From assembly GCA_963700285.1 (NCBI GenBank), contig CAVOXA010000001.1, forward strand, positions 1,504,001 to 1,568,000: 64,000 nucleotides of DNA. The letters are read 5' to 3'. The first letter of the stretch is position 1. Each line of letters opens with the position of its first letter. The notes under the pieces were generated by a model that was given only the letters and a program-made list of their open reading frames with translations, was not told the origin of the DNA and did not search any database. A program made the translations under genes and the position numbers. This document shows, in pieces, positions 5,690 through 56,896 of this stretch. Source of the DNA: an uncultured Chloroflexia bacterium (GTDB lineage: Bacteria; Chloroflexota; Anaerolineae; JAAYZQ01).

Positions 5690-8215
5690 CTAGCGCTGAA
5701 CGAACTCGATTGTGACTTGGCCGCCAGATTTTAGGTACAACTGGCCGGCTTCCAGTGTGTAACTATCGGCTGACTCCAGATTGTTCAGGAATGCCTCTTC
5801 CTGCTCCATGATCCCCTTGGGTGACTCACACATCGAACGAGATGCCGAAAGCTTCTTGATGCGCAGGTCGTTGCCATCGATCTCGTAGCGAGCGCTATAG
5901 CTGTTGCAGCCACCAGAACCACTGAGATCGCTGCCCTCGCCAAAAACCGCCGTCAGGCTCGTCCCCGGTAGGGGCTGCTCCATCCCATTGGTGGCGGGAT
6001 TGTAGTAAAAAGTGGCCGCCCATGATGTTCCGGCCAGCGGATTGGTGGGCTGGTCCTCGCTGACAGTGACCGTCTGCTCCTGCCTGTCGCGCTTGTCGTT
6101 GGCGTTGTAGGCGATGACGGCGTAGACCGGCTCGCCGGCATCGGTGGGACAGTCCTGAAGGCTGCCGCTGAGAGGGGCATTGTCTTCTAGCTCGGTGTCA
6201 TCGCGGAGGATGGAGACCCAGGTCGTACCGCCGCTTGTGCTCCAGGAGATGGTAACGCACTCACCGACCGTGATCTCGCCCGGCTGTACGCCAAAGGAGT
6301 CGATCACAGGGTCTGAGGGCACGGCTGTCGGCTCCACAGTAGGCTGCGGTGTAGGAACTGGCGTTGCCGTAGGCTGATCAGGCTGCACGACGTTGATCGC
6401 CTGCTGCTGGCCTGTGCTGCCGCCAGGCCCTACGGCCTCGATACGATAGGTTACCGTGCCGGTCCCGGGCGGGCAGTCTTCCAGGTCTCCGCGAAGGGGG
6501 GCGCCCTCCCACAGTGGGGCATTGTTCGCATAGACGGAAACCTTGTCCACGTCACCCTCCACATTCCAGGTGATGTCAACGCACTGGCCAATGTTGATCT
6601 GCCTGGGAGGCGTGACGCTGAACTCCTTGATGACAGGGGCTCCGGCGGCTGGCTTCACCGTGATGGCGATCTGCTGTACCTCCACTGAGCCATCATGGTG
6701 GACGATTCTCAGATAGTAGGTGGTGGTTTCGGCTGGGCACTCTTGCCGGCGATCCTCGCCGGCCACGCCATTGTTCTGCCAGTCCTGGCCCTCAGCATAG
6801 AAATAGACTGCCTGGACGTTGTCGACTGCCCAGGAGAACACCACGCACTCGCCCGCCGTGATCTCTGTCCGGTCAACCGTGAACATAACTCCGGGTGCTG
6901 GCGTCTGAGTTGGGATTGCCGTGGCTGCCGGAACCACCTTGATGGCCACGGGCAGGCGTTCACCAAATGCCTGTCCGCTCCCATTCTCCATCTGCCAGTA
7001 GCCCACATAGGTATCTGGCTTCTGCGGCGCGACCAGGTTCACCTGGATGTCGTAAATCCCTCCGGGAGTCACCTTTCCCTTCACGGCTACTGGCTGGCCG
7101 CCCATGATTGCCGCTGGTTTGTTGCCGTTGGAATAGACAAGCCTGTAGGAGCTATCCCAGGTACAGGTGCCGGTGTTCTTGACCCTCCAGGTCTTGGTAA
7201 AGGCCTGTCCGGGGTTCTTCAAAGGTGGATCTGCGACAGGGTCGCCCTGCGTGTCGATGTGCTGCAGGAATTCCAGGGCATCGACACATGCCGGTACAGG
7301 TCCCGGTGTGCTGGTGGCAGCCGGCGTCGGCGTGGGCAAGAGCTGACCCAGGTCCAGGTTCAAGTACAGTTTGGCCAGTTGCTCCACGACGCCCTCTTCG
7401 AACATTCCTGCCATAACGCGATCCAGCTCTGCCTTCAGTGATTGGGCTCCCTTGGGCAGGGCCACAGCATAGTGCTGAACGTCTAGGCCTTTGCCGACGA
7501 GCGTTACGCCGCCCTGCTCCACGGCAGCCCCGGCTGGTTGTAGGTCCATGACCACCAGATCCACGCGTCCCTGCTCCAGGTCCCGTACGGCGTCACTGGC
7601 CTTCGCATAGGTTTTCAGATTGTCCTGGGGCATCTGGCCCGTGTCCACAAGAACGGTCTGCAGCCAGTTTTCGTATACGCTGGCGCGCTGAACGCCGACA
7701 AGGTAACCGGCCATCTCTCCGACCGAGTTGATGGCAGTGATGGGTGATCCCTTGGCTGCCAGGATGCCGTCCTGACCAACCAGGTAAACGGTCGTAAAAT
7801 CCACCATGGCCTCTCGCTCCGGCGTGATGGAAATGGCGGCAATAACGGCGTCGACCTGCCCAACCTGTAGGGCGCCGACGAGCCCGTCGAAGGCAAAGTT
7901 GCGATACTCAACCTCAATCCCTAGCCGGCGGCCCATCTCATCCATCAGGGCGATGTCAAAACCGTCGATCTGGGTGTCGTTGGCCATATATTCGTATGGC
8001 GGATAGTCGGCCGAGGTGCCGACGACGATCTTGCCCGCGTCCTGGACCCGCTGCCAGGACGTATCTTCGTCCGGAGACGGAGGGCCGGCCGTCGGCGTCG
8101 CCTGGCCGTTGCCCCCGATCAGTGAGTTTACAATGAAATAACCTGCGAGACAGCCCACGACCACGACCACCAGGGCCAAGACGGCTATGAGCACGATCTG
8201 CATTGTTCTAGACAT
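5690..8215 (-). CDS. Membrane-anchored family-3 solute-binding domain + NBR1-Ig-like + three Cys-paired Ig-like modules + META domain (paralog 1)
   Basis: ADYPPYEY, GFDI, ISITPER; FTKTWRVKNTGTCTW; C-V-x3-W...E/DCP x3; GSGGCNSY..SRSMC..MEQE. Confidence 0.85.
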   Translation of the reverse strand: MSRTMQIVLIAVLALVVVVVGCLAGYFIVNSLIGGNGQATPTAGPPSPDEDTSWQRVQDAGKIVVGTSADYPPYEYMANDTQIDGFDIALMDEMGRRLGIEVEYRNFAFDGLVGALQVGQVDAVIAAISITPEREAMVDFTTVYLVGQDGILAAKGSPITAINSVGEMAGYLVGVQRASVYENWLQTVLVDTGQMPQDNLKTYAKASDAVRDLEQGRVDLVVMDLQPAGAAVEQGGVTLVGKGLDVQHYAVALPKGAQSLKAELDRVMAGMFEEGVVEQLAKLYLNLDLGQLLPTPTPAATSTPGPVPACVDALEFLQHIDTQGDPVADPPLKNPGQAFTKTWRVKNTGTCTWDSSYRLVYSNGNKPAAIMGGQPVAVKGKVTPGGIYDIQVNLVAPQKPDTYVGYWQMENGSGQAFGERLPVAIKVVPAATAIPTQTPAPGVMFTVDRTEITAGECVVFSWAVDNVQAVYFYAEGQDWQNNGVAGEDRRQECPAETTTYYLRIVHHDGSVEVQQIAITVKPAAGAPVIKEFSVTPPRQINIGQCVDITWNVEGDVDKVSVYANNAPLWEGAPLRGDLEDCPPGTGTVTYRIEAVGPGGSTGQQQAINVVQPDQPTATPVPTPQPTVEPTAVPSDPVIDSFGVQPGEITVGECVTISWSTSGGTTWVSILRDDTELEDNAPLSGSLQDCPTDAGEPVYAVIAYNANDKRDRQEQTVTVSEDQPTNPLAGTSWAATFYYNPATNGMEQPLPGTSLTAVFGEGSDLSGSGGCNSYSARYEIDGNDLRIKKLSASRSMCESPKGIMEQEEAFLNNLESADSYTLEAGQLYLKSGGQVTIEFVQR

Positions 8216-8283
8216 TTCGATTTTCTCCTTGTAGGTAGTTGCCTGACGGGCATGGCATCGCCGTGCCAGTTAGCTCGCTGCGC

Positions 8284-10161
8284 CTACTGGGCCGGGACAA
8301 AGGACATCGTACCGCTGTCTGCAGGCAGGTCCAGGTACAGGTTTTCGCCATCAAAGAAGTAGATGACGGCCTCGTTCAGGTACTGAACGAACTTGTCGCT
8401 CAGCGATTCTGGCGGGCACATGGCCCTGGTCATGGCCATGATCTCGATATCGATGCTCCCGCTGGATCCCTTTCCGGCGTTCTCAGAGGTATAAGAGCCG
8501 TTGCCCTGGTTGCAGTCGGCCTTGGCGCTGACACTGCCGTCGTTCCTGAATTCGACCGTGTACTGCGTCGGGTCGTCCACCGTGAGCTTGCTCAAGGGGT
8601 CCGAAAAAGCGATCCATTGCCAGACCACGCCGGTGAGCGCCGGCTCAGCACTCGCGCCTGTTCCCGAGGTCTCTACGAGCTGGTCGCCTTCTAGGGCATA
8701 GGTCTGTACCATCTGTTGCGTGGGGCAGCACATCGGGTCATCTGGCCCGTGGGTGACCATGTCGACCACGATTTCGTTATTCTCAATGACCACGGAGTTG
8801 ATCTGGACGCGGTCGCCCAGCGACGTGGTAGCTACATTCACTGGCTCGCCGTTCTGCTCCACGACAGCGGCCAGATCCATGTAGGTTCCACTGCCGCCAC
8901 CAGAGCTGGCCAGTACCACCGCCGCGGCCGGCTGGCCATTCAGCTCTCCATAGGCGATGGGGTCCACCACTTGGACGACGATCTCCGAGGCCGAGTCTGG
9001 TGCGGCCGGCGCACGGTACTCGCCGTCGGTCAGTTCGACCGTGCCCGATTCGGTCCATTCCGACTGGTAGGTCATGTTCTTCAGGGTACTCTCGTCCAGT
9101 CCGGCGGCCTCAGCCTTAGCTACCAGGGTCACAACCCGCGTGCCCTCCGAATCCTTAATCTCCAGCTCATTGCCCTTGATCTCGTAGGTTGCGGCTGACT
9201 CCAACGCCTGCAAGTAGGCAGCCTCCTGTTCCATGGTACCCTCAGGCTCGCCGCAGAACATGCGTGTGGTCACTGCGGGGCCGATAGAGATGCCGCCGCG
9301 CGCTGCATTGCCACTGCTGTCGAGTTCGTAGGAGGTTGTATAGTTGTTACAGCCCGCCGAGCCGGTCAGGCTTCCGTCCTCGCCAAACGTGGCCGTGATC
9401 GCGGTACCTAGAAGGACCGATGTATAACCACCCTTGCCATTGTTGTACATGAGCACATCCCAATCCGTACCCACGAGGGGGGTGGTTTGCTGGACCCGAT
9501 ACTGGAGGATTGTGTCACCGGTTGCATTCGCGATCCGGAGCTCGTCTCCTTCGATGTAGTAATATGCCGAACTGCCCAGAGCCGCCATGTACTCCTGCTC
9601 CTGCTCCATGACCTCTTCGGGGCCGCAATACATCATGGTCATAGCGCCAACACCGATAGCGATCTTGGCTCCGTCTATTGTGTACTGGCCTGTGTACGAG
9701 TTGCAGCCCGCATTCCCGCCCAACTGCCCATCCGCAAAGAGGACGGTGATCTGTGTATCGGGCTGCAGAGCGGTTGGCTGGCCGGCACTATTGACGTACA
9801 GTTCCAGAACCCAGGTCGTACCCTCCAGATCTCTCTGCTTGCTCACGATTTCGAGCAGGATCCAGCGGATGGAAGAGGCGTCAGCAGGTGGATTCTCTAC
9901 TTTCTGTTTCTGCACCAGCAGCTCGTATTCGAAGCCCGGCTCGTACTCGAAGCCCTGGATCTGGTCGTAGAACAGCGTCCAGTCGTCCTTGGGGTCTTCT
10001 CTGACCAACATGCACATCTGTGGAGCGACGCCTGTGCACGGGACCTGGTGGGACCCGACATAGACCGTCGTACCGGTAGACCTCCCCACGGCGGGGGCGC
10101 ATGCTGCCAGAACTGTGGCTGCCAGGAGCAGCATGCTGACCATCAGTTGAACTCTTTTCAT
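8284..10161 (-). CDS. Lipoprotein with DUF4377-like and three META (HslJ-like) domains
   Basis: Lipobox LAAC; CTGVAPQMC..IQGFEYEPGFEY; GCN/DCN..TxMxC META repeats. Confidence 0.85.
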   Translation of the reverse strand: MKRVQLMVSMLLLAATVLAACAPAVGRSTGTTVYVGSHQVPCTGVAPQMCMLVREDPKDDWTLFYDQIQGFEYEPGFEYELLVQKQKVENPPADASSIRWILLEIVSKQRDLEGTTWVLELYVNSAGQPTALQPDTQITVLFADGQLGGNAGCNSYTGQYTIDGAKIAIGVGAMTMMYCGPEEVMEQEQEYMAALGSSAYYYIEGDELRIANATGDTILQYRVQQTTPLVGTDWDVLMYNNGKGGYTSVLLGTAITATFGEDGSLTGSAGCNNYTTSYELDSSGNAARGGISIGPAVTTRMFCGEPEGTMEQEAAYLQALESAATYEIKGNELEIKDSEGTRVVTLVAKAEAAGLDESTLKNMTYQSEWTESGTVELTDGEYRAPAAPDSASEIVVQVVDPIAYGELNGQPAAAVVLASSGGGSGTYMDLAAVVEQNGEPVNVATTSLGDRVQINSVVIENNEIVVDMVTHGPDDPMCCPTQQMVQTYALEGDQLVETSGTGASAEPALTGVVWQWIAFSDPLSKLTVDDPTQYTVEFRNDGSVSAKADCNQGNGSYTSENAGKGSSGSIDIEIMAMTRAMCPPESLSDKFVQYLNEAVIYFFDGENLYLDLPADSGTMSFVPAQ

Positions 10162-10331
10162 AACAATTCTCCTTTGTTTATGGTAAAACAGCGTTTCCGC
10201 TGCAATCAAACAGCTCTCGTCCACTGAACCCGGACGAGCTTGGCCCGGTGAGCCATGGCAGAAGCCGCTGAGTCACCAGTCAGTACGGACGCAATTGGGC
10301 GTGGAAACGTTCCGCGTGGCTCCTAACGGTC

Positions 10332-10865
10332 TCATGGACCGCGCCGCCGATCTGCCGGCAGCACCTGGGCCAGCTCTTTTGGCTTTTGGGAGCCAATCAA
10401 GATCTCTTTGCCGCTTCGCAGCGTTAGATCCACCCCTTGATTGCCGCTAACGTTATAGGCCCGTTTGCCACCGCCCCACCCGCGAATGCCCCAGCCTCCG
10501 TACTCGCGTATCGGATTGTACTTGCGCACCGCATAACTTTCAATCTCCTCAAAGGGAATGGTACGCGTAAGCACCGGCACGTAGCGGATGTAGATGTGGT
10601 CTTCCCGTACTTCTGTGACGAGCTTTAAGGCGTGGAAAAAGGCAGGGAGCCCAAAACCACAGGCCAGCCAGATGAGCCACATCATCCAATCGGGTGCGGG
10701 ATTGGTACCAAAGGGTTGGCCCAAGACGATCTGCTGGATAAAGCCGTACCAGGTTAGGGCGGCACAACCATAGACCAACAGCCAGACCCACCACTGGCGG
10801 AATCTCTGGACTTCGCGAAAGGCGACACTCCCAACCCGGCTCACTGGGCTCCAATCCTCCCTCAC
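10332..10865 (-). CDS. DUF6141-like membrane protein
   Basis: FREVQRFRQWW, YNPIREYGGWGIR, IGSQKPKEL. Confidence 0.75.
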   Translation of the reverse strand: MREDWSPVSRVGSVAFREVQRFRQWWVWLLVYGCAALTWYGFIQQIVLGQPFGTNPAPDWMMWLIWLACGFGLPAFFHALKLVTEVREDHIYIRYVPVLTRTIPFEEIESYAVRKYNPIREYGGWGIRGWGGGKRAYNVSGNQGVDLTLRSGKEILIGSQKPKELAQVLPADRRRGP

Positions 10866-10871
10866 TCAACC

Positions 10872-10961
10872 CTACGACTCGTCTGCTGCCTCCACTTCCT
10901 CGCCTGGAACTGGAAGGGACTCCCCGGTGACCGCGGGCTTCAGTGGGATAATGATCCACAA
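10872..10961 (-). pseudogene. Possible C-terminal remnant of a PspC-domain protein
   Basis: Frame reads LWIIIPLKPAVTGESLPVPGEEVEAADES-stop with no matching upstream part. Confidence 0.3.
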
Positions 10962-11328
10962 GGGGCAAACCCGCCAGTCTGTGTAGGCGCCATCAGCTCG
11001 CCTGCGACTGGATTGGAGATCCTCAATCTTATCTACGGGTCCGGGTCCGCTAAGCGGTGGAATCGGAGTGTTGCGTCGCTCCAGAACAGGGGATCGCCAT
11101 TGACGCCATGTACGCGGCCAGATGCCTTTCGCTCACGCTGACACACTTCCGGGTGTGCTGTGCACCATTATACTGGGGTTGGACCAATCTGTAAACTGTG
11201 CGGACCCCTGGGTCCACCAAATCTGGCCGTGCAGGCTGATCTGGCTCAGTTTGCCTAGTCCTTCCCTTGATGGCCTTTGGCCCCGGGAGCCCGTTTCGCC
11301 TGAAGATGATGGGGGCCCATTCTCGTTC

Positions 11329-11427
11329 AGACCTCGGAGATTCTGCCCAGGCCGCAGTCCATTTCCGCCTCTGCAGAGTCCTCAGTGGCAGACATGAACC
11401 TGAGGCGAAGAAAAACCTCCGAGGTCT
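11329..11427. repeat. Inverted REP-like doublet
   Basis: AGACCTCGGAGATTCT ... AAAACCTCCGAGGTCT, 67-bp spacer. Confidence 0.6.
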
Positions 11428-11483
11428 TGGTTACTCGGGCTTGTGAGCGAATTTCCACCGAATCGGGCCAGGTCGCTGCGAGC

Positions 11484-13219
11484 TTACCATAGGTCTTGCC
11501 TGAAAATCGTTGGAAGATAGCCCTGGGGCACAACGTGCGGTGGATGCCGGTCGACGATTATCGCCGCCTCTGACCTGCTGGCGAAGGGCTCCACTCCTCC
11601 GGCGCTGTCTGTAGCCCGCACCTCGAACCTGTAGATTCCATCCTGAGGGGCCAGATCTGTGAACTCTGCGCTGGTGAGCTTGGTTCCCGTGAGCCAGGCA
11701 ATCCAAGGGCCATCGGCAAAGCTGTAGCGCAAGTCAAAGGAAGCAATGGTCAGCCCAGGTGCAGCGGATGAGGTCCACGATACCAAAAAGCTGTGGTCTG
11801 GGGTGAGTGCTGGGTCAAAGGGTATGATGTGCGAATGGGGCCCGCTGGTGTCCACACGCGTGGCCGCCTGGGCGCTAGCGCTCCAAGGTTGGACGTTGCC
11901 GGCGTTGTCTGTGCCCCGTGCCCGGAAGCCATAGATCCCGTCGGTGTGGGCACCGGTGAACTGGGCGGAGGTGAGTGTCGTATTCTGCAGCCAGACCTGC
12001 CACGGACCGCCGTCCTCCTGGAACTGGACGTCCATGGATTTGATGCCCGACCCGCCCGGATCGTCCGAGCCGCTCCAGTAGACCCAGAACGCGGACACAT
12101 GCGTGTAACCAGGCAGGGGGTCGACTGAGATGCTGGGGGGAACTGAATCCACCGTCGTCTGGGCCTGGGATGCTCCCCATGCCTGGATGTTGCCGGCATT
12201 GTCCACGGCGCGGGCGCGATACTGGTAGGTCGTCCCACTGCGGCCGCCCACCCATTCTGCCGAGCGGTCGGTGGTGTGCATGCGCCAATCAATCCACTGT
12301 CCGCCATTGGTGTTATACTGGACGTCAAAGTAGGCGATGCCGCTACCCCCGTCATCGTGGCCGTGCCAGTGAACAAAGAACCTCTGGGGCGACCAGGTGG
12401 GCAAGGGCTTGACCGAGGCGACGGGGGGCGTCGGGTCGGTGTGCTGGGTATAGTCGACAACCAGCCGGGGGTAGAGCCCGTTGTTGGCGTTGAGCGAATA
12501 GTACATCCTCTGACGGTTCTGTACTCGCTCGTCACCGATAAAGATGAGGCCATAGTTGGCGTGGGACCCGCTGTACCAGTCCTTGACCAGGTCCGTCACA
12601 TCTGTGTAGCCCCAGCCCAATTGGGATCCTACCTGACCCATGCCAGCAACGGTGCCCCAGTGCGGCTGGTGGCTGGCCCAGGTTACCAGATTCTCATCCC
12701 AGGGGGTCAACAGGTGTCGGGCCTCGACGCCCATGGGCGAATCGTTCGCCGGCGAAGCGGCAAAGAGATAGGTTTGCAGCGTGGCGCTGTTGATCACCGC
12801 CTGGGTCGGCACGTAGCGATTCACGTCAAACTGCATGAAGGGTCGCAGGGCGCCATCGTTGCTCCCCCCAAACTGTACCCGAGGCGCAAATCTGGAGCGG
12901 AGCCATAGTTCTGGTTGGGTTTGTTGGAGGTGATATAGGTATCCTGTTGTACCGGGATCTGGACCACGGTGTTCACCGCATTTGGCAACACCGTCTCCTC
13001 AAGGATCACAGCTTCCAGTCGCGCTGCGAGTTCCTCATCACTGGGTCCTTCAGCCGGCAAGGCCTCATCCCCTGGCCCCTGGGCCACCGGCGCCTCTTCG
13101 CTGGGCTGCTGGGCGGCCGGAGTGACCACCACAAGCGCCAGGGACAGCATCAGGACCAGGGCCACAAGCGCCGCTCTCTTGGTCAGCAAAGAACTCGACC
13201 TCTGCAATAGCTCTGCCAT
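11484..13219 (-). CDS. Secreted DNRLRE-like domain + three fibronectin-III-like repeats; frameshift in G-run near 12865
   Basis: Signal peptide, QDTYI..NYG..LRLG joins to GALRPFMQFD; three YxFRARAxDxAG repeats; tail YLPTIFR. Confidence 0.8.
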
Positions 13220-13258
13220 TTTGCTTCCTCCTGTGAGTTAGGTTATTCGGCTTTTACT

Positions 13259-14893
13259 CTAGCGGCAAGGATCATAGTCCTCGCCCAGTATGATGAGAAG
13301 ATCTGCCTGCACGTCAGCGCTCGCCTGGCCAGGCGGGGGCTGGTGGACTATGTTCTTGGATTTGATCTTTAGCAGGCGCACGAGAGAGTCGAGGGCCTGA
13401 GGTTTGTCATCAAAGACGAGGATCTGGGTCTGCTGATGGTCGCGTTCTTGGGCCAGACCCGTGCCTACGGCGTTGAGTCCCTGCCAGCGCAACTGATCAG
13501 CCGCGATGAGGGCCAACTGCGGGCGCTGCGTGCCGTTCAGCACCTGGATGCGAGCGTCCTCGCCGGCAACCTGTTCTCTATATGCTGAAGGTGGTGCGTA
13601 GAGGCTGGCCACCTGTTGCTGGATCTTTTCGGGCTGGGGAAGCTGGACCCGTGCTCCGCCCTCGGTCGTCCAGCCCAGGACCTGGCCGTAACCAATGTAG
13701 CGGCCCTGGATTCGCTCAGGCCTGAGGTCCAGCGCCAGAGGAGCCAGGGACAAGACATCGCCCAGGCTCAGATCGGTGTGGAAGCTGTCCTTCATTGCCG
13801 ACCAGAGACCCGGGATCCTGGCGATGAGGCCCGGACCCCTGGCCTGATCCCACACCGCTCTGAGAAACTGCTGCTGGCGCGGGGCGCGCTGAAAATCGTC
13901 GCTGCCCCGGCGAGTACGGACGTAGCGCAGCGCTGTAGCGCCATCCATGCGATATACGCCGGGTGCGAGCCACATCTCTTCCTCTTGATCCGAGGTAGGA
14001 GGCCGGTAGCGCAGGTTGACGGGACAGGCCACCGTCATCTCCACGCCGCCCAACTCATCCACGGCGCGGGCAAAGCCCTGAAAGTCGACGCGTACCCAGT
14101 GGTCGATGGGGATGCCCAAGTTGTGCTTGATGGTGTCCATCAACAATCCAGGCCCCTGACCTGGATAGTCCCGCTGGTGTCCGATCCTGTGGGCGATGTT
14201 GATCCGTCCCCAGCCGTAAGTAGGGATATAGACCCACAGGTCGCGGGGGATGGACAGCATGGATACCAGTTTTGCCGTCCTGTTCACCACGGCGACGATC
14301 AAGACGTCTGTGTTTTGGTCCTTGACATATTTGCTGCCGTCTGCCCCGATGAGCAGGATATGCAGGAACTCGGGTGGCGCGGCCGCCATGGGTACCGGAG
14401 TGGTCCAAAGCGGTAGCCCGACACGTGGGGTAATGGTCTGCGTCGCTGTGATCGTCGGTCTGGCTGGCAGGGGCATGTTGGTCCAGGTCGGGATGGCCGA
14501 GGGCGTGGGCGTCGGCGAAGGAACAGGGCTCAGGGTGGGTGTTGGCGTCAGGGTCGGCAGTTCTGCTGGGGGCGACGTACTGGTCAAGGTGGGTGGCAGT
14601 GTTGGGCTCTGGGGCCGGATCGGCGGGCTTGAGGTCGAGGCAGCCGGTACAGATGGCAAAGGGACGGCTGTCGGGAGGGGAGTCTGAGACGGCGCTGGTG
14701 TGAATGTAGGCCTGCTTGTGGCCATAGCGAGGGTAGGTGTGATCGCCAGAGCTGCCGCGGGCATCGATCCACTGGCACAAGCGCCCAAGTTGTTGGCGAC
14801 GATGGCCAGGAGCAGGAGAGTAACCAGAGTGGCTACCCCACTCCTGCCCCTGGCACCTTTTTCGCAGTAGACGTCTTTCTCTCGTCTGGGCAC
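13259..14893 (-). CDS. LCP (LytR-CpsA-Psr) family protein with PT-rich linker and LytR_C domain
   Basis: ILLIGAD, NTDVLIV, SIPRDL, YVRTR..DDFQR..RQQ; VLNGT..IILGED. Start uncertain. Confidence 0.9.
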   Translation of the reverse strand: MPRREKDVYCEKGARGRSGVATLVTLLLLAIVANNLGACASGSMPAAALAITPTLAMATSRPTFTPAPSQTPLPTAVPLPSVPAASTSSPPIRPQSPTLPPTLTSTSPPAELPTLTPTPTLSPVPSPTPTPSAIPTWTNMPLPARPTITATQTITPRVGLPLWTTPVPMAAAPPEFLHILLIGADGSKYVKDQNTDVLIVAVVNRTAKLVSMLSIPRDLWVYIPTYGWGRINIAHRIGHQRDYPGQGPGLLMDTIKHNLGIPIDHWVRVDFQGFARAVDELGGVEMTVACPVNLRYRPPTSDQEEEMWLAPGVYRMDGATALRYVRTRRGSDDFQRAPRQQQFLRAVWDQARGPGLIARIPGLWSAMKDSFHTDLSLGDVLSLAPLALDLRPERIQGRYIGYGQVLGWTTEGGARVQLPQPEKIQQQVASLYAPPSAYREQVAGEDARIQVLNGTQRPQLALIAADQLRWQGLNAVGTGLAQERDHQQTQILVFDDKPQALDSLVRLLKIKSKNIVHQPPPGQASADVQADLLIILGEDYDPCR

Positions 14894-14929
14894 GTGTCCT
14901 GGCCTATTGCCGCGAACCCTTGGTATGTG

Positions 14930-15826
14930 CTATTCGCTTACGGTGACCGTCACGTCCTCGTGGACATGCTTACCCTCGGCATTGTAGGCGACAAGGCGGT
15001 AGTCGACCGCGCCCGCTTCGTCGGGGCAGTCCTGCACCGAACCCTGCAGTGGGGCGTTGTCCCAGACCTCATATTCGCCGCGAAAGACGTCGACCTCAGT
15101 AGTGCCGCCGCTGGTACTCCAACTGAGTTCCACGCACTGGCTCAGCGAGATCTCTTCCGGGTCAACCTCGAAAGAGTCGATCTCTGGCTTCAAGACGGGA
15201 GGCAGCGTCGGCTCGGGCGTGGCCGTGGGCTCGGCCGTGGCCGACGAGATGATTTCGATCTGCGCTGGTGCGGTGTCGGTCAGCCCATCCTGGTCGGTGA
15301 TGGTCAGCGTGACCATATAGTCCCCGGGGTTTCTGTAGACGTAGCGAACGACCGCTCCGCTACCCTTGTTCCCATCGCCAAAGTCCCAGTCGTAGCGCGC
15401 GATGGGGCTGGTTCCGGGTTGGGATTGACTGCCGTCAAAACTCACCTGCTCGCCGGTCATGGCCTGGGCCGGAGCACTGACAATCGCGTTGGGTCCCACG
15501 GCTGAGGTTGGCGTTGGCTGGGGCTCATCGCCTGGGGTCGGTGTCGGAACATCCGGGGCCGGCGCAGCCGGCGTGTTTGTGGGAAGGTTGATGGGCGGCA
15601 GGGTGGGAACGGTATCGCCTCCGCCTCCCCGGCTGATCAGGACGGCGGCCACGATCGCGAGGCAGCAGGTGACAGCAACCAGGGCGGCAATGACGACTCC
15701 ACCCGCGATCAATGGCGTCCGGTTGTCCTTCTGCGGTGACTCTGGTTCCGCTGGGTAAGTATCGCCACCCTCAGCCGCATAGCCGTCCTCGGGCCCTGGC
15801 TCAAAGGTATTCTCTTCGGTTGACAT
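14930..15826 (-). CDS. Membrane-anchored PKD-domain protein with Cys-paired Ig module
   Basis: TM helix, YDWDFGDG, then CVELSWSTSGGT..WDNAPLQGSVQDCP shared with the SBP paralogs. Confidence 0.85.
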   Translation of the reverse strand: MSTEENTFEPGPEDGYAAEGGDTYPAEPESPQKDNRTPLIAGGVVIAALVAVTCCLAIVAAVLISRGGGGDTVPTLPPINLPTNTPAAPAPDVPTPTPGDEPQPTPTSAVGPNAIVSAPAQAMTGEQVSFDGSQSQPGTSPIARYDWDFGDGNKGSGAVVRYVYRNPGDYMVTLTITDQDGLTDTAPAQIEIISSATAEPTATPEPTLPPVLKPEIDSFEVDPEEISLSQCVELSWSTSGGTTEVDVFRGEYEVWDNAPLQGSVQDCPDEAGAVDYRLVAYNAEGKHVHEDVTVTVSE

Positions 15827-15913
15827 TTTTCACTCCTTTACGGTTTTGTCCCGCATTTTTGTATGGGGCCGCACCCTTGGATCGGCGATCCAGAGAAAGG
15901 CTACCAGTCCCGG

Positions 15914-18124
15914 CTACTGGACAGTAACAAACTGATCCTGGTGTACGCGCTTGTCCTGGGGATTGTAGGCGATGAGCCGGTACTGGAGCGTCCCCAACCC
16001 TTTGGGGCAGTCCTGGACCTGCCCGCCAAGTGGTGCGTTCTCCCAAACCATATCATCATCGCGCCAGAGATTGATCCAGGAGGTGCCGCCACCCGTCTGC
16101 CATCGGAGGTCCACACAGCTTCCCGCCGCAATCTGATCAGGTTGGGCGGAGAAGGAGTGGATCACGGGCTGGTCGGATGGGGGTGGAGGAGCGGGCGTAG
16201 CGGTGGCTTGCCCTACAACGTTGACATTCTGGTGCCCACGGCTGACGCCGCCGGAACCCCGGGCCTCTATGCCATAGGCCATGTTGCCGGGCGAGGATGG
16301 GCAGTCCTGGATCTGACCCTTGACTGGCGCAGCGTCCCACAAACTGTTGCCGTTGGCTGTGATCTGCACACGGTTTACGTCACCGGATACCTCCCAGCGG
16401 ACATCCACACATTGACCCAGTGTGATCTGGTTGTGCGGGTCGACGGTGAAGCGATCGATGGCCGGCGCCTGGGGAGCGGCTTCGACATTGATGGTGATCT
16501 GGCGCGTATCGACAGAGCCATCGCCCTTGACCACACGCAGGTAGTAGGTCGTCGTGTAGGGCGGGCACTCCCGTTGTTGTCCCTCGCCAACTATGCCATT
16601 GTCCTGCCATCGTTCCCCTTCGGCGTAAAAGTAGACTTCTCGAACGTTTTCTACCTTCCAGCCAAAGACGACACACTCACCCGACTTGATGTTCGTCCGG
16701 TCCGCGGTGAAGATGATACCGGGTACGGGTGTCTGGGTGGGAGCCGGCGTGGGTTTGGGTGGAGCAGGCACCCGGATGCCCACCGGGAGCCGTTCGCCAA
16801 AAGCCTGTTTTTCACCGCTTTCTATCTGCCAGAATGCCTGGTAGGTACCTGGCTTGAGAGGAGCAACGAGATCAACTTGGAGGTCGTAGGTCTCACCGGG
16901 TGCTACCTTGCCCTGGATGGCCACTGGCTCGCCCCCCATGCGGGCTGCCGAGTCGTTGCCGCCGCCGTAGACCAGGCGGTAGCCGCCATCCCACGTGCAG
17001 GTCCCGGTGTTCTGGACCCGCCACGCCTTGGTAAAGGGCGTCCCCGGCTGCATGATCTGCGGAGTGGTCATGTTCTGATCGTTGTAGTTCAGATGCTTGA
17101 CAAGGGCCAGGCCATCCAGACAGGGTGGCGGGGGCAGCGGTGTCCTCGTTGGCTGCGGAGTCCCCGTAGCCCGCGGCGTGGGGGTAACAGTTGGCGTGGC
17201 TTGGATGGGTTCTGGCTGCAGATCCAGGTACTCTTTTGCCAGCAGCGCGACAAAGCCCTCGTTCTGCAGCTCGACCAGGGTCTGGTCCAGCTCAGCTTTC
17301 AGGGATTCGGCGCCCTGGGGCAGGGCGATGGCCAGTCTCTGCTGGTTCAGACCCTGGCCAACCACCTCTACCCCGCCTTCAGCGGCAAAGGCCTGGGCCG
17401 GCTGGGCATCAAGCATCACGAGGTCGAGGCGATCCTGGCGCAGGTCGCGTACGGCGTCTTCGGCCCGTTCATAGACAAACAACTGGTCGTTTTGCAGCTC
17501 GCCTGTGTCTACCAGGTTGGTCTGCAGCCAATCATCGTAGACACTGCTGCGCTGGGCGCCGATGCGGAGACCGGTCAGGTCATCGATGCTATCGATCGAG
17601 TTGATGCCCGAGCCCTTGCGGGCCAGCAGCCCATCCTGGCCAACATAGTAGACGTTGGTAAAGTCCACATAGTCCTCGCGCTCTGGCGTGATCGACACGG
17701 CGGCGATGGCCGCATTGATCTGGCCCAGCATCACCGCGGCGCCAAGACCGTCAAAGGCAAAGTCGCGGTACTCGACCTCGAGACCCAGGCGGCGACCGAT
17801 CTCGTTCATCAGCTCGATGTCAAATCCCACGAGCTGCGGTGGGCCTTCCCGATCGACACCGGTGTAATACTCAAAGGGCGGGTAGTCGGCCGCCGTACCA
17901 ACGATGATTTTGCCGGCTGCCTTGACCTGCGACCAGGAGTCATCCGCGGCTGCTTCACGAGTGGCTGTGGAGGATGGCTGGGCCGGTGGCGGGGAGGGTA
18001 GCGTGGGCGGGGAGGGCTGGCTAGGTTCCGGTGGCTGGGTAGGCTCTGGGCCCGAGGGGCCGCAGGCCGTCAACACCAGGATGGCCACCAGGCCCAGGGT
18101 CACGACAATCGACTTCTTGGGCAT
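15914..18124 (-). CDS. Lipoprotein family-3 solute-binding domain + NBR1-Ig + three Ig modules (paralog 2)
   Basis: Lipobox LTAC; ADYPPFEY, VSITPER; FTKAWRVQNTGTCTW. Confidence 0.85.
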   Translation of the reverse strand: MPKKSIVVTLGLVAILVLTACGPSGPEPTQPPEPSQPSPPTLPSPPPAQPSSTATREAAADDSWSQVKAAGKIIVGTAADYPPFEYYTGVDREGPPQLVGFDIELMNEIGRRLGLEVEYRDFAFDGLGAAVMLGQINAAIAAVSITPEREDYVDFTNVYYVGQDGLLARKGSGINSIDSIDDLTGLRIGAQRSSVYDDWLQTNLVDTGELQNDQLFVYERAEDAVRDLRQDRLDLVMLDAQPAQAFAAEGGVEVVGQGLNQQRLAIALPQGAESLKAELDQTLVELQNEGFVALLAKEYLDLQPEPIQATPTVTPTPRATGTPQPTRTPLPPPPCLDGLALVKHLNYNDQNMTTPQIMQPGTPFTKAWRVQNTGTCTWDGGYRLVYGGGNDSAARMGGEPVAIQGKVAPGETYDLQVDLVAPLKPGTYQAFWQIESGEKQAFGERLPVGIRVPAPPKPTPAPTQTPVPGIIFTADRTNIKSGECVVFGWKVENVREVYFYAEGERWQDNGIVGEGQQRECPPYTTTYYLRVVKGDGSVDTRQITINVEAAPQAPAIDRFTVDPHNQITLGQCVDVRWEVSGDVNRVQITANGNSLWDAAPVKGQIQDCPSSPGNMAYGIEARGSGGVSRGHQNVNVVGQATATPAPPPPSDQPVIHSFSAQPDQIAAGSCVDLRWQTGGGTSWINLWRDDDMVWENAPLGGQVQDCPKGLGTLQYRLIAYNPQDKRVHQDQFVTVQ

Positions 18125-18173
18125 TATTCTTCTCCCTTCTGCGAGCTTGGCCAGCACGGGTGCGGCCAGTGTA

Positions 18174-18202
18174 AGCCTACCAAACAGTTGGCCGCTTGTC
18201 AA
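18174..18202 (-). promoter_or_regulatory. Probable promoter for paralog 2
   Basis: TTGACA-17-TAGGCT. Confidence 0.55.
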
Positions 18203-18248
18203 GTACAGTGGTACTGCCCACCAGGGTTGGCACAAAGTCCCGCTCGGC

Positions 18249-18343
18249 ATCCTTCCGAAGGTTTCTGCCTTGTTCTCGTGCCCCACCGCATGGTAGAATC
18301 AAGCAGTAGCAGGGCAGTGGCCAGCGCAAACCTTCGGGAGGAT
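18249..18343. repeat. Inverted REP-like doublet
   Basis: ATCCTTCCGAAGGTTT ... AAACCTTCGGGAGGAT (15/16 inverted match), 63-bp spacer. Confidence 0.6.
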
Positions 18344-18460
18344 CGCCCTGTCAAGGTACTTTGCAGCAACCCTGCACGGCTCACCGTGTCCGGCAAGGCA
18401 CCGCGCTCGGGGGCGGTGCGACCACCGCCCCCTTGAACGAGCGTGTTTCTCGGCCGTCAA

Positions 18461-20610
18461 CTACTGGACAGTGACGGTCCGGTCTGCATTAACCCGCCTA
18501 TCCTGTGGGTTATAGGCGATGAGGCGATAGTTCAGTACGCCCGTTGCTGTGGGGCAGTCCTGCACCGAGCCCTGCAGCGGGGCGTTCTCCCAGACCGTAT
18601 CGTCGCCGCGGTAGATGTTTACCCACGAAGTGCCGCCCCCTGTTTTCCAACTGAGTGTTACGCAGGCGCCGGCCGGGATCTGTTCCGGGTTCACCGAGAA
18701 GGCTTGGATGACGGGATCGTTGGGGGAGGTGGGGGCGCCGGTGTGGCCGTGGCCTCGCCCACGACGTATACCGTGTGATGTCCCTCGCTGTTGCCGCCGG
18801 GGCCCGAAGCCTCGACGCCATAGGCGACGTTGCCGGTGCTGGTGGGGCAGTCCTGCATCTGGCCCTGCACTGGTGCGGCATCCCACAAGCTATTGCCGTT
18901 GCTGCTGATCCTGACCGAACTGACGTCCCCGGTCACTGACCAACGGATGTCGACGCACTGGCCGAGGGTGATCTGATTGGCGGGGTCCACGGTAAAGCGC
19001 TCAATGACCGGCGCATTGGTGGACGGGGTGACGTTGATGGTGATCTGACTGGACTGCACAGAACCATCGGGCATGACCACCCGCAGATGGTAGGTCATGG
19101 TGTGAGGCGGGCATTCCTTCTGGCTGCCCTGGCCGGCGACGCCGTTGTCCTGCCAATTCTCGCCCTCGGCATAAAAGTAGACCGCCTGGACGTTCTGGAC
19201 GTTCCAGGAAAAGACAACACACTCACCCGCATTGATGCTGGTCCGGTCCACGGTAAAGCTGATACCCGGCACAGGCGTCTGTGTTGGTACCGGTGTGGGG
19301 TTCGGGGGCGCGGGGACCTGGATGCCGACCGGCAGGCGCTCGCCAAAGGCTTGATTCCGGCCGTTCTCCATCTGCCAGAAAGCCTGGTAAGTCCCAGGGT
19401 TGAGGGGGGCGACGAGGGCGATCTCGATGTCATAGGTTGCACCCGGTTGCACCGTGCCCACAATGGCCACAGGCTGGCCGCCCATGCTAGCCGCTGGGTG
19501 GTTGCCCCCACCATAGACCAGATGGTAGCTGCTGTCCCAGGTACAGGTGCCTGTATTCTGCACCCGCCAGCCTTTGGTGAAGGGCTGGCCCGGCTGCATG
19601 ACGGCCGGTGAAGACATGTTCTGGTCGTCAAAGTTCAAGTGCTGGATCAAGGCCAGGCCGTCCAGGCAGGCCGGTGGTGGACCCGGTGTGCTGGTTGAAA
19701 CAGGCGTCGGGCCGGGGGTGGGTGTGGGCAGATTGGGATCCACGTTCAGGTACTCTTGGGCCAGGTTGGCGACATAGCCCTCGTTCTGCAGTTGGGTCAG
19801 GACATCGTTAATCTTTGTCCTGAGGGATTCGGCTCCCTTGGGCAGCGCGATGGCGTAACGCTGCAGGTATAGACCTCCTCCGACGATTCTGACCCCTCCT
19901 TGGCTCTGGAAGACTTCGGCAGGCTGGGCGTCCAGCACCACCAGATCGACGCGACCATCCCGCAGGTCTCGAACGGCGTCATCCGCCCTCTGGTAGACCA
20001 ACAGTTGGTCAGCCGGCAATTGGCCAGTGTCCACCAGGTTCGTCTCCAGCCATTCGTCATAGACGGTGCTGCGTTGGGTGCCGATTTTGAGCTGGGCCAG
20101 ATCGCTGGTGCCGTCGATGGTGGTGATGCCCGAGGCGTCGCTGGCCAAGATGCCGTCCTGGCCTACAAAGTAAACGTTGGAAAAATCGACATAAGACTCG
20201 CGCTCGGAGGTGACCGAGACGGCAGCAATGGCAGCGTCGATCTGGCCCAGTTGCAGGGCGCCGCCAAGCCCGTCGAAGGCAAAGTCGTGATACTCGACCT
20301 GAATACCCAGACGCCGGCCGATCTCGTCCATCAGGGCGATGTCAAAGCCGTCAATCCTGGCATCGGCGGTATAGTACTCAAAGGGCGCATAGTCGGCGGC
20401 CGTGCCGACGATGATCTTGCCGGCCGCCTGGACCTTGTCCCACGATCCATCTGTTCCGGGCTGGGGCACACCGGTGAAAGTAGGCTCTGCCACCGCGGTG
20501 GGTGTGGGCTCCCCGCCGGGCTGGACGATCACGACAATCGCGATGGCGCAAGCAGCCAACACGATGAGGGACAGCAGGGCAATGATCACGATTTGAGCGG
20601 TTCTCGACAT
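18461..20610 (-). CDS. Membrane-anchored family-3 solute-binding domain + NBR1-Ig + three Ig modules (paralog 3); frameshift in C-run near 18724
   Basis: ADYAPFEY, VSVTSER, FTKGWRVQNTGTCTW; last Ig module NDPVIQAFSV..DCP lies in ORF 18461..18886. Confidence 0.85.
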
Positions 20611-30439: not shown

Positions 30440-31897
30440 TCAGCCCGCGGCTATCTCTGCCTCTGCCTGCCGCTTGAGTCGACTCAGTGCGGCCAGGACG
30501 TCGCCAGGCAGAGGCGGGACCTGATGATTCTGGTCTATCTCTTCCAGCTTTTCCCGGATCCGCTGGTTGATGTCCTTGGCGCCGTCGGCCTGCCAGATAG
30601 AGTAGTCATGTCGGGCCAACAGGCTGGGACGCCACAGCTCCTGCCGGAACCGGCGATAAGTATGGTCTTCCTGCAAAAAGTGACCTCCCGGGCCGACCTT
30701 TTCCACGACATCCACAGCCAGGGTACCGGCATCGACTTCGATCCCCCGGCAGAAGCGTTTGGCCATGCCAATCGCTTCGTTGCCCAGGACCAGCATCTCT
30801 GTGGAGCAGACCATAGCCGAGTCCATGTAGCCTACATCGTGGATCAGGTTCAGGCCAGCCAGACCCTGGGCCAAAATGGAAAAAGCGCTCTCCATCCCGG
30901 CCTGAGGATCCAAAACCTTGGAATCAGTCGCACCCGCCAGTCCCCAGGTGGGCAGGCCCATGGACCGAGCAACCTCTGCCTGCCCGGCAAGGGCCAGGCT
31001 CATTTCTGGCGCAGCTACCGTCAACTGAGTGGTAGACATGTCAAACACCGACATGTTGGCGCCCAAGACACAGGGTGCACCAGGCCTGCGCAATTGGGCC
31101 AGAACCACGCCCATGAGCGATTCAGCCACAACCTGGGCGATGGCTCCGGCCAGGGTCACTGGACCGGTGGCGCCGAACTGGACCGACGGTCCTGGGATCT
31201 GGGGCATGAACAGATCGGCCGAAATAAAGATCCGTTCAACGACCTCGTCAGGGTATACCAGGGGGGAGATGGGTTCCGGATAGGCTAGCAGGAAGGGCCG
31301 CTCCCTTAGTTCATCCAGGCCGCCGGCAATTTCAGCCGCCATCTCGTAGACCCGCTCCGAGCCACGAGCAGAGTAGCCGATGAATACGACGGGCTTGGTG
31401 GTGTTGGTGACGACGGCCTCGAATTCATAAACGTCAGCCGCCAGGGCAGGAACGTCCTGGGATGAGCCCATGGGCATCACCCAGTCGATATCTGGCAGTG
31501 CATCCGCGACCTTGGCCCCAAAGGCAATGTCCGCTACCAGGGTTCCGCGGATCTCACCTGTGAACGCGTCCCGGGTCCTGGGACTGGCCGTCGACGTGCC
31601 GTAGTAGCTTTTCCGCCCTTCAACTTCCATGGCCCGGTTGCCATCGCGGTCAAAGATCACAAAGCCCTTGGGGGCTGTCCGGATACACTCCTCAACGATG
31701 TGCTGTGGTACCTTCACCCGTTCCTCCTTGACCAGGGCGCCGGCCTGCTTGAGCAGTGCCCTGGCCCCTTGGTGAAGGACGGTGCAACCGGTGTGTTCCA
31801 GGATGTCCAGAGCGGCTCGCTTGATCGCCCAGACCTGTGCGTCGTCCAAGACACGAAAGTGTACCGAACTCGATCGAGGGAATGCGGTTTGAATCAT
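30440..31897 (-). CDS. Trimethylamine methyltransferase (MttB) superfamily, non-pyrrolysine
   Basis: ISPL, GATGPVTLAG, GATDSK..D.QAG.E, IHDVG, GPGGHFL; no internal TAG. Confidence 0.92.
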   Translation of the reverse strand: MIQTAFPRSSSVHFRVLDDAQVWAIKRAALDILEHTGCTVLHQGARALLKQAGALVKEERVKVPQHIVEECIRTAPKGFVIFDRDGNRAMEVEGRKSYYGTSTASPRTRDAFTGEIRGTLVADIAFGAKVADALPDIDWVMPMGSSQDVPALAADVYEFEAVVTNTTKPVVFIGYSARGSERVYEMAAEIAGGLDELRERPFLLAYPEPISPLVYPDEVVERIFISADLFMPQIPGPSVQFGATGPVTLAGAIAQVVAESLMGVVLAQLRRPGAPCVLGANMSVFDMSTTQLTVAAPEMSLALAGQAEVARSMGLPTWGLAGATDSKVLDPQAGMESAFSILAQGLAGLNLIHDVGYMDSAMVCSTEMLVLGNEAIGMAKRFCRGIEVDAGTLAVDVVEKVGPGGHFLQEDHTYRRFRQELWRPSLLARHDYSIWQADGAKDINQRIREKLEEIDQNHQVPPLPGDVLAALSRLKRQAEAEIAAG

Positions 31898-55450: not shown

Positions 55451-56896
55451 CTAGGGAGTCCCGACGGAGGCTCCCGCGATGTCATCAAGTTGCTGTTGGA
55501 TGTCGTCGGGCAGCGGCTGCGGCTTGTGGTTTGCCAGGATGGACAACGCCTTCTCCCGGGCGCGCTGGCGCATGGTCTTGGCACCGTGGGCGAGCCAGGA
55601 CTCATAGTTGCGGCGATCGAATAGTTCGGGATACCAGTCCTCCCTGAAGTGGGCACGGGTGTGTTCGGTGCTTAAAAAGTCGCCGCCGGGGCCGACCTGG
55701 TGGATGATGTCCAAGGCCAGGGTCTCGGCGTTGATCTCCAGCCCCTGCATAAAACGCTTGGTATAGGCGATCAACTCGCTGCAAATGACAATCTGCTCCA
55801 CCGAGTTGGTCATGCCGCCATCCAGATAGCCTACGTCGTGGGCCATCTGGGCACCGGCCAGAGTCTCCAACAAGATGGAGAAGGCCGCTTCGGCAGCGGC
55901 CTGCTCATCAGGGAGCTTGGAATCGCTGCAGCCGGCCAGGCCAAAGATGGGCAGCCCGTAGCGATGGGCAAGCTCTACCAGCATGACGCGATTCGTGGGA
56001 TCGGCATAACAGTCGATGGTCGTGCGCATGTCCAGCATGCTATTGACCCCACCGGTGAGGATGATGGGCGCGCCTTCGCGCTTGAGCTGGGCAATGACCA
56101 GCCCTGCCAATTCCCCGGCGTTGGCCAGGGCGATGGCGCCGGCTGCTGTCACTGGACCGCTGGCTCCACGCAAGACAAGGGGTGTATAGGTGGTAGGCAG
56201 GCCCTTGCCTGCCAGGAAGAGCAGTTTCTGCATGGATTCCTGGTTGTGGAGCAGGGCGTTTGAAACGTTGATGTAGCAGGCACAGATGGGGTTGCGGCGC
56301 AACTCCTCGGCCCCGCCGGCGACGGCCTCTGCCATCCTGATCACGTCGACACAGCCCCCGAATGCGGTGGTCACAAAGAGGATGGGCTTGGTGCTGTTCA
56401 TCAGCATGGCCCGCATTTGGTGCCTGTCGGCGGTCTCCTGGACAAGGTCCCGGGCGAGGCAGAAGGACATGAGAAAGTCAATGTTGTCCAGCCCGTCACA
56501 GACGATGCTGGCCTCTACGATATCCTGCAAGGTACCCGGGCGGCGCTCGCCGGTGCGGATGTCGATCACATTGGGGCAATCAGACCCGGGTCCAAAGAAC
56601 ACATTGTTCCGCTCCAGGGGCATCACCCGCCGGCCGTTCCGGTCGCAGAGTACCGTTCGCTTGGGCGCCACGGACAGCGCCCACTCGATGATGCCGGGAG
56701 GGATACGCACCAGATTCCCCTCCTCAGCGGAGATTCCTTTCTTCTCAAGAAGGGCCAATGCCTCCGGCTCGTGAAGGCGTAGGCCAGTGCGATCGAGAAT
56801 CTCCAGGCTGGCGTGATGGAGGCGCTGGATCTGATCGTCGGAAAGTTTGCGAAACTGCGGTGTGTCAAAGGAGGCATAGTTGCTCTGCAAGACCAT
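55451..56896 (-). CDS. Trimethylamine methyltransferase (MttB) superfamily, non-pyrrolysine
   Basis: GASGPVTAAG, GCSDSKLPDEQA, HDVGYL, GPGGDFL; no internal TAG. Confidence 0.92.
   Translation of the reverse strand: MVLQSNYASFDTPQFRKLSDDQIQRLHHASLEILDRTGLRLHEPEALALLEKKGISAEEGNLVRIPPGIIEWALSVAPKRTVLCDRNGRRVMPLERNNVFFGPGSDCPNVIDIRTGERRPGTLQDIVEASIVCDGLDNIDFLMSFCLARDLVQETADRHQMRAMLMNSTKPILFVTTAFGGCVDVIRMAEAVAGGAEELRRNPICACYINVSNALLHNQESMQKLLFLAGKGLPTTYTPLVLRGASGPVTAAGAIALANAGELAGLVIAQLKREGAPIILTGGVNSMLDMRTTIDCYADPTNRVMLVELAHRYGLPIFGLAGCSDSKLPDEQAAAEAAFSILLETLAGAQMAHDVGYLDGGMTNSVEQIVICSELIAYTKRFMQGLEINAETLALDIIHQVGPGGDFLSTEHTRAHFREDWYPELFDRRNYESWLAHGAKTMRQRAREKALSILANHKPQPLPDDIQQQLDDIAGASVGTP

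Follow-up and report, generated by a model that had tools for sequence, protein, structure and literature searches.

The three paralogous proteins encoded in the window, by which we mean the whole 64,000-nucleotide stretch analyzed, belong to a family that we tentatively interpret, with a probability of roughly 0.4, as ligand-binding envelope receptors or adaptors uncoupled from their transporter. The family-3 amino-acid-binding (SBP) domain that they carry likely no longer serves its ancestral ABC permease. Family genes are never found beside a transporter gene, which therefore makes surface receptors a likelier role for them than ordinary uptake subunits. Among 301 genomes from the class, 35 carry at least one family gene.

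All three paralogs lie on the minus strand. P1 (5690..8215, 841 aa) has an N-terminal membrane anchor, a family-3 SBP domain (aa 63-285) and a PT linker, followed by an NBR1/FW domain (334-427), three two-Cys Ig-like modules (439-719) and a META domain (726-838). P2 (15914..18124) comprises 736 aa from an RBS-backed ATG, with a lipobox-like signal (Cys21), the SBP (73-300), the PT linker, the NBR1/FW domain (355-452) and three two-Cys Ig-like modules. P3 (18461..20610) encodes a membrane anchor, SBP, NBR1/FW and three Ig-like modules, with a one-base frameshift near 18722. P2 and P3 share 53% and 58% identity with P1, respectively. Pfam SBP_bac_3 matched all three (E 2e-32, 2e-28 and 1e-30 for P1, P2 and P3) at 99-112 bits against a gathering cut-off of 26.4, placing them among the family-3 SBPs, and N_BRCA1_IG did likewise (E 8e-23, 2e-22 and 7e-22; 79-81 bits against 28), whereas META (E 7e-17) was confined to P1. 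The earlier note had proposed a common anchor–SBP–NBR1–triple-Ig architecture with META in one copy, and the Pfam and Ig models agree with it, except that P3 is not a single open reading frame and that a fourth paralog exists in the same genome (G000, contig C5:48917-51442). The third Ig module of P3 lies in a different frame, one base off in a C-run. This is probably a homopolymer assembly error, because both a relative's contig (~96% identity) and the same-genus genome G263 carry one more base there. Two transmembrane anchors and one lipobox had also been noted, in agreement with the strongly hydrophobic N-terminal segments of P1 and P3 and the LTAC motif of P2. The picture of an SBP borne on a stalk, however, must be reversed: the SBP is membrane-proximal in P1-P3, and the FW, Ig and META parts form the distal arm.

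The binding pocket appears to be that of a basic amino-acid-binding protein. The SBP matched Thermotoga maritima ArgBP (TmArgBP, PDB 4prs) with E 6e-26, and the TmArgBP residues Asp37, Phe38, Glu42, Phe76, Arg101, Gln142 and Asp183 correspond to D70, Y71, E75, F109, R134, Q176 and D224 of P1. All seven mappable arginine contacts are thus kept in P1-P3, with one Phe→Tyr substitution. Retention of the Arg and hinge Asp in all three, as claimed earlier, holds for Arg134 and Asp224 (P1 numbering); together with the aromatic sandwich, the carboxyl-binding Arg and amine-binding Asp are kept in all four paralogs of this genome. Across 56 family rows, from which four insertion-type rows had been left out, both aromatics, the Arg and the Asp were kept in 52, and the Arg alone in all 56. 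Pocket columns are among the family's most conserved (Mann-Whitney p about 2e-5, uncorrected for kinship). The pocket is under purifying selection, and dN/dS is 0.11–0.19. The predicted ligand, judged from these residues, is arginine or another basic amino acid. A cystine-type pocket, raised by the PRK11260 score, was set aside since the TmArgBP contacts fit better. Degenerate-pocket copies persist as full open reading frames (L078, P0264). Compared with TmArgBP as described in PMC4022495, P1-P3 share the SBP_bac_3 domain and the seven contacts, but they lack a linked permease or ATPase and carry 450-600 extra residues (FW, Ig, META); at the position of Thr146 the family has Val, and most members no longer have the Asp56-Lys242 pair. 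NCBIfam SBP equivalog and subfamily models all scored far below their cut-offs (best 129.5 bits against 256.35).

As the earlier note had observed, the window gave no match to a HisM/GlnP permease or an ABC ATPase, and neither of this genome's two loci is linked to one. The earlier note had named homologs routinely sitting beside HisM/GlnP permeases as telling against its proposal. Among 47 family loci in the genomes of 30 relatives, not one held such a permease, whereas the same scan detected them in 16 of the 40 stretches used as controls; in this as in all counts of family loci, carriers and rows, the relatives are kin and thus not independent. The search for related loci contained 3 full-length relatives among 12 loci. 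Looking for cognate permeases elsewhere in the genome, as had been suggested, gave a divided answer. HisM permeases occurred in 34 of 34 carriers tested, but all 16 permease loci fetched from carriers had their own non-family SBP, placed outside the family's clade. The genome studied here has two HisM-type ABC operons (C1:508925-512229 and C10:1541020-1544048), each with its own SBP, and the 99% complete genome G216 has one permease with its own SBP, yet two family copies. A seemingly orphan permease in L085 was rejected owing to an SBP fragment upstream.

The family SBPs group with stand-alone SBPs of full SBP-permease-ATPase operons (SH-aLRT 98, both trees being quick searches without bootstrap, the second built after removal of six long or partial rows and with the family reduced to 24). 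The family SBP descends from an operonic ABC SBP clade. No ortholog of the sister-clade permease was found in any of the 35 carriers, the best matches reaching 32-39% against 49-100% in four operon controls; this permease is rare, occurring in 6 of 301 genomes, and its absence from 35 carriers is therefore statistically unsurprising. Pocket conservation is equal in the comparison of operonic sisters and family (0.84 vs 0.80). The segment 204-211 of P1, the most relaxed in the family, has a pairwise identity of 0.75 in operonic sisters and 0.31 in the family, a difference that favors uncoupling; in this segment P2 and P3 are still similar to the operonic sisters.

FW domains are protein-recognition modules in eukaryotes. 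The family FW domain scores above the Pfam cut-off, and its model matches the FW fold of human ILRUN (Z 16.4, rmsd 1.5, 107 aligned) and of NBR1 (Z 14.6), with 6vhi and 4ole as the matching structures. Modeling of P2 from a single sequence gave poor SBP and FW parts (mean pLDDT 44), and its Ig part alone was used. The modeled Ig-like modules (pLDDT 89) resembled PKD, FN3 and Ig domains with Z about 10-11. The anchor and tandem Ig/PKD/FN3-like beta-sandwiches fit the architecture of an Ig-repeat adhesin or surface-layer protein. A Foldseek search with the four-domain model yielded generic Ig-chain matches with rmsd near 30 and was uninformative, and for the Ig part the ESM Atlas listed unnamed Chloroflexota clusters and nothing else. 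Of the disulfide Ig stalks described in the earlier note, the three Ig-like modules are present in each protein; the disulfides themselves we infer because the Ig cysteines are kept or lost pairwise. This Ig module also makes up the ectodomain of other proteins, among them a Ser/Thr kinase, an FHA protein and proteins of the SH3, PA14 and giant repeat kinds. An insertion of ~340 residues of META (three domains) in SBP lobe II occurs in at least 12 homologs, of which two have kept the pocket intact, and four homologs have cytoplasmic Ig-like repeats ahead of the anchor.

Several neighboring genes also encode envelope proteins. Directly upstream of P1, across a gap of 68 bp, lies a lipoprotein with DUF4377 and three META domains (8284..10164, minus strand), and META-rich neighbors recur at family loci. 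Directly downstream of P2 is a membrane-anchored PKD protein whose C-terminal two-Cys Ig module is the same as the family's (14930..15826, minus strand), followed by a LytR-CpsA-Psr (LCP) gene (13259..14893, minus strand), a probable co-transcribed envelope gene. An LCP gene adjoins family genes here and in the genome of the same genus but nowhere else, so the linkage is not conserved beyond the genus. Tandem family pairs occur at 10 of 41 loci. Genes for asparaginases, glutaminase, ornithine carbamoyltransferase, ornithine cyclodeaminase and AbgT are scattered among the neighbors, but being sporadic, unconserved and often in the opposite orientation, they were discarded as a functional clue. 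No signaling gene was a conserved neighbor among 133 neighbor proteins scanned. A dispersed repeat of ~150 bp, with no assigned strand, separates P3 from P2 (18218..18375) and has seven other matches in the genome. Rfam gave no match within the window, promoter and terminator counts there were at chance level, and neither ArgR nor VKOR was found in this 89%-complete genome.

The main rival, which we consider rather unlikely, is that of an accessory ABC SBP delivering arginine to a HisM/GlnP permease encoded elsewhere, with the FW-Ig-META arm serving only to tether or position it. An intact pocket, a membrane-proximal SBP on a lipid or transmembrane anchor and the HisM permeases of all 34 carriers tested accord with such a role, and the last of these makes use of a non-cognate permease possible; several SBPs reportedly share one permease in E. 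coli, namely ArtJ and ArtI. However, the two are adjacent at none of the 47 loci, the permeases that do occur are paired with SBPs of other clades, carriers lack the ancestral permease type, lobe II tolerates 340-residue insertions, and G216 has two family copies beside a single permease already paired with its own SBP. A passive trap, in which the anchored copies would keep amino acids at the cell surface within reach of secondary transporters or envelope enzymes and take part in neither signaling nor ABC docking, is quite improbable: multiple paralogs per genome, the tandem pairs and the amino-acid-metabolism neighbors would suit it, but those neighbors are unconserved and often face the other way, and the invariant FW domain would be left unexplained. 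Still less probable is a structural envelope or adhesion protein with the SBP fold as a spacer and ligand binding vestigial or incidental. Ig/PKD/FN3-like folds are typical of S-layer and adhesion proteins, some copies have degenerate pockets, and LCP and PKD genes lie next door in the window, yet the pocket residues form the family's most conserved columns, with the Arg invariant in the non-insertion set.

Under the preferred reading of an uncoupled receptor or adaptor, the SBP would capture a free amino acid close to the outer face of the membrane, and its C-terminal helix would lead through the Pro/Thr linker to the FW domain. Beyond that domain, the Ig modules (at least three) and the optional META could extend an estimated 15-25 nm, at ~4 nm per domain, into the multilayered envelope of Chloroflexota. 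There the arm may bind partner proteins, for instance the META-rich proteins encoded nearby. Ligand state might tune these contacts, or a separate membrane partner might read it. This output step is the weakest part of the model; in 11 longer homologs, neither a kinase or cyclase nor any other output domain was found fused to the protein. The earlier proposal of a scaffold, adhesin or sensor rather than a plain transporter subunit is upheld in its non-transporter part, because of the 47 permease-free loci, the purifying selection on the pocket and the missing ancestral permease; no single one of the three jobs is singled out, because neither a conserved signaling neighbor nor a fused output domain is present. 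A more specific version, in which Anaerolineae-specific amino-acid-gated receptors combine a permease-less arginine-binding protein with FW and an Ig/META arm so that amino acids switch envelope protein contacts in filament cohesion or attachment, is unlikely as it stands. Other observations also weigh against an uncoupled receptor: the SBP occupies the position from which a lipoprotein SBP would feed a permease, every carrier examined has HisM permeases, P2 and P3 keep their likeness to the operonic sisters at the relaxed segment, the sister permease is rare in any case, and degenerate-pocket copies persist.

The family-3 SBP fold has been placed in non-standard settings before, without or apart from a permease, as in MltF, the StpK7 kinase, orphan GrrP and the adhesin PEB1 (NCBIfam names), and, according to PMC8050422, in SBP-stimulated receptors. 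These comprise an enzyme or kinase domain, a short stand-alone protein or a known receptor, whereas the present family adds non-catalytic binding or spacer domains and has no linked receptor gene. FW domains have been reported in Chloroflexi, and the bacterial examples in PMC9582228 and PMC3357945 are XRE-FW proteins, in which FW lies close to the C-terminus; the family FW differs in being internal and extracytoplasmic, in bearing a conserved Cys pair and in following an SBP. As in META/HslJ proteins (PMC3270026), META occurs in P1 and the upstream lipoprotein, but in the family it may follow the SBP, precede it or interrupt it; the META papers found establish its ligand for no bacterium. No description of the SBP-FW-Ig architecture was found in the full-text literature searched, which excludes most subscription papers. 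Databases label the family proteins ordinary polar amino-acid transport SBPs, and such labels would lead to too many predicted transporters in sediment Chloroflexota, which are abundant and for the most part uncultured. If the proteins are receptors, they would represent a route from an ABC binding protein to a surface sensor or adhesin without enzyme fusion, and offer a tractable bacterial FW domain with a defined ligand prediction (arginine); were the amino-acid-gated reading true, an extracytoplasmic FW domain of bacteria would for the first time have a function assigned to it. The natural triple-META insertion also marks a tolerant site in a family-3 SBP, of use for biosensor design.

Three minus-strand genes of the window, P1 (5690-8215), P2 (15914-18124) and P3 (18461-20610), were described in the earlier note as paralogs joining a solute-binding domain (SBP) to an NBR1-like (FW) domain, one of them with META. 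Pfam profiles bear this out, with SBP_bac_3 and N_BRCA1_IG far over cut-off in all three and META additionally in P1, to which P2 is 53% and P3 58% identical. The claim of three genes holds for the domains of P3 but not for a single ORF: its frame stops at 18691, and the third Ig module runs on to 18461 in a different frame. The homopolymer at 18721 is one base longer in a relative's contig (1029 nt, 42 differences, one gap) and also in the same-genus genome G263. Because a second gene, encoding a secreted CBM96 and FN3 protein (11484-13219), is broken in the same manner by a frameshift near 12830, a probable homopolymer error, the P3 frameshift is likely an assembly error. Elsewhere, the source genome carries a fourth paralog, which has a lipobox-like signal (contig C5:48917-51442). 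The window also contains a probably MITE-like repeat of ~150 bp (18218-18375) with a GC hairpin nearby and seven further matches in the genome (78-85% identity), as well as two trimethylamine methyltransferase (MTTB family) genes (30440-31897 and 55451-56896).

Searching with P2 gave 580 matches among 7991 scored candidates, and every one of the best 120 of these contained SBP and NBR1 domains. The named organisms among these 120 are few and all Anaerolineae, which suggests that the family belongs to this class. Within the class, 35 of 301 genomes had matches at E ≤ 1e-60, and within the taxonomic family 8 of 23; in a phylum sample of 401 genomes, with two candidates scored per genome, the full architecture appeared solely in the source genome and one same-class genome. 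The Ig module by itself is widespread (2559 clusters), and SBP and FW domains accompany it in 49 of the best 149 new clusters, the rest including SH3, PA14, kinase and giant repeat proteins. Every single domain is already known, as is the recruitment of SBPs away from transport, and PMC3357945 already reports Chloroflexi FW domains. No paper on the SBP-FW-Ig architecture was found in the literature covered, which included parts of PMC7589609, PMC3270026 and PMC8050422, and a term search of the Litorilinea supplements returned no such protein. What is new is a real, conserved and undescribed protein family with a testable ligand prediction, rather than a demonstrated mechanism.

An alignment-based structure model of the C-terminal 401 residues of P2 (mean pLDDT 89) comprises four all-beta domains. 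The first resembles the FW domain of human ILRUN (Z 16.4, rmsd 1.5, 107 aligned) and that of NBR1 (Z 14.6). For the remaining three, PKD, FN3 and Ig domains score Z ~10-11, with no single best. Among 70 aligned sequences with three Ig cysteine pairs per protein, the two cysteines of a pair occurred together in 198 cases and were jointly missing in 12, with no lone cysteine, and the FW pair was present in 68; since the Ig cysteines are kept or lost pairwise and the FW pair is kept, these pairs probably form disulfides. The source genome has four DsbA-like matches, and contig C10:238264-239868 holds three (Thioredoxin_4) in tandem. A crude rule assigned an N-terminal TM anchor to 104 of the best 120 homologs and a lipobox to 6, leaving 10 that were partial or other; given the domain order, the SBP lies next to the membrane and the arm points away from it. 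The Ig module also occurs in a frameshifted gene consisting solely of three two-Cys modules, without SBP or FW domain (C22:101866-102787), and in an FHA-TM-Ig protein and its neighbor, both with CARDB-like domains (C10:912125-915839).

We tentatively favor, at a probability of about 0.4, an envelope receptor or adaptor that binds a ligand and is no longer coupled to the ancestral permease. As the earlier note had stated, no permease or ABC ATPase match lies within the window; the two HisM-type operons of the source genome each have their own SBP. The neighborhood check yielded no HisM-type permease at any of 41 family loci from 28 genomes (40 fetched stretches plus locus L003; 33 flanked by 3 kb or more on each side), nor at six further family loci inside 40 control stretches. 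The identical scan detected permeases in 16 of the 40 controls, all 16 with their own non-family SBP, although most stretches had been picked around SBP matches, a choice that biases this count. Comparative evidence argues well against a dedicated transporter. HisM permeases occur somewhere in all 34 relatives' carrier genomes, and service as an accessory SBP to a non-cognate permease is the least unlikely of the alternatives. In SBP-domain trees, the family forms its own group within a clade (SH-aLRT 98) shared with stand-alone SBPs, and all five of known context adjoin permease genes. None of 35 carriers has an ortholog of the sister-clade permease (best 32-39% identity vs 49-100% in controls); because this type occurs in just 6 of 301 class genomes, the suggested loss of the ancestral partner is without statistical force. 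Residues 204-211 of P1, which HisJ work would place on the permease-facing side (a role not found in the literature searched), are the family's most relaxed segment relative to operonic sisters (0.31 vs 0.75; overall 0.47 vs 0.56); P2 and P3 are still sister-like there. Among side observations, a family-1, family-3 and ribose-type SBP fusion, frameshifted in the source genome, precedes a sugar ABC system and a HisM permease, the latter fused to a WD40-like N-terminal region (C10:1535098-1544048); multi-SBP fusions in this setting also occur at L104 (1298-aa frame, with a family-5 SBP), L122, L083 and L112.

Pocket conservation is unchanged between the family and operonic sisters. PMC4022495 names the residues through which T. 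maritima ArgBP contacts arginine; when these were mapped by alignment, seven of eight fell on D70, Y71, E75, F109, R134, Q176 and D224 of P1 (Ser131 was not mappable), and these seven are retained in P1-P3, with Phe replaced by Tyr. The pocket Arg and Asp that the note had reported in all three paralogs are R134 and D224; the C5 paralog has Glu for Gln. Across 56 family rows, seven contacts are kept in 24 and six in 28, and both aromatics, Arg and Asp are all kept in 52. With dN/dS against G263 of 0.11-0.16 for SBP, FW and Ig (META 0.19), this conservation leads us to predict arginine or another basic amino acid as ligand. A structural protein with a vestigial pocket is the least probable reading; only marginally less improbable is a passive amino-acid trap. 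In the favored receptor or adaptor, the SBP would close around a basic amino acid at the surface of the membrane; the FW domain and Ig/META arm may contact partners, with a putative output, within a multilayered envelope. Protein binding is described for the eukaryotic FW domain (PMC9582228), and such an envelope for Litorilinea (PMC13319060).

In some variants, about 340 residues comprising three META domains lie inside SBP lobe II at four genome loci (L078:5602-8916, L105, L110, L111) and in eight database proteins (P0242-P0249); the pocket is intact in P0242 and P0243 and degenerate in L078, with Arg and both aromatics gone. In P0105, P0109, P0241 and P0309, ~340 residues of Ig-like repeats precede the TM segment and are presumably cytoplasmic. 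A kinase or other output domain was absent from all 11 longer homologs. The family members L049:9622, L054:9943 and L068:4067 share an acidic N-terminal cytoplasmic tail whose short Thr-containing motif could, speculatively, be a phosphorylation site. META genes apart, no conserved neighbors emerged among the 133 of 163 selected neighbors scanned. META lies inside 19 of 51 family ORFs, a separate META gene lies within 3 kb of a family gene in 10 of 28 genomes, and 10 of 41 loci carry two or more family copies. The source genome has 24 META matches, and near-identical META-META-SH3-Ig-META lipoprotein genes occur at C1:291127, C14:67787-69499, C18:1152-2891 and C21:821-2534.
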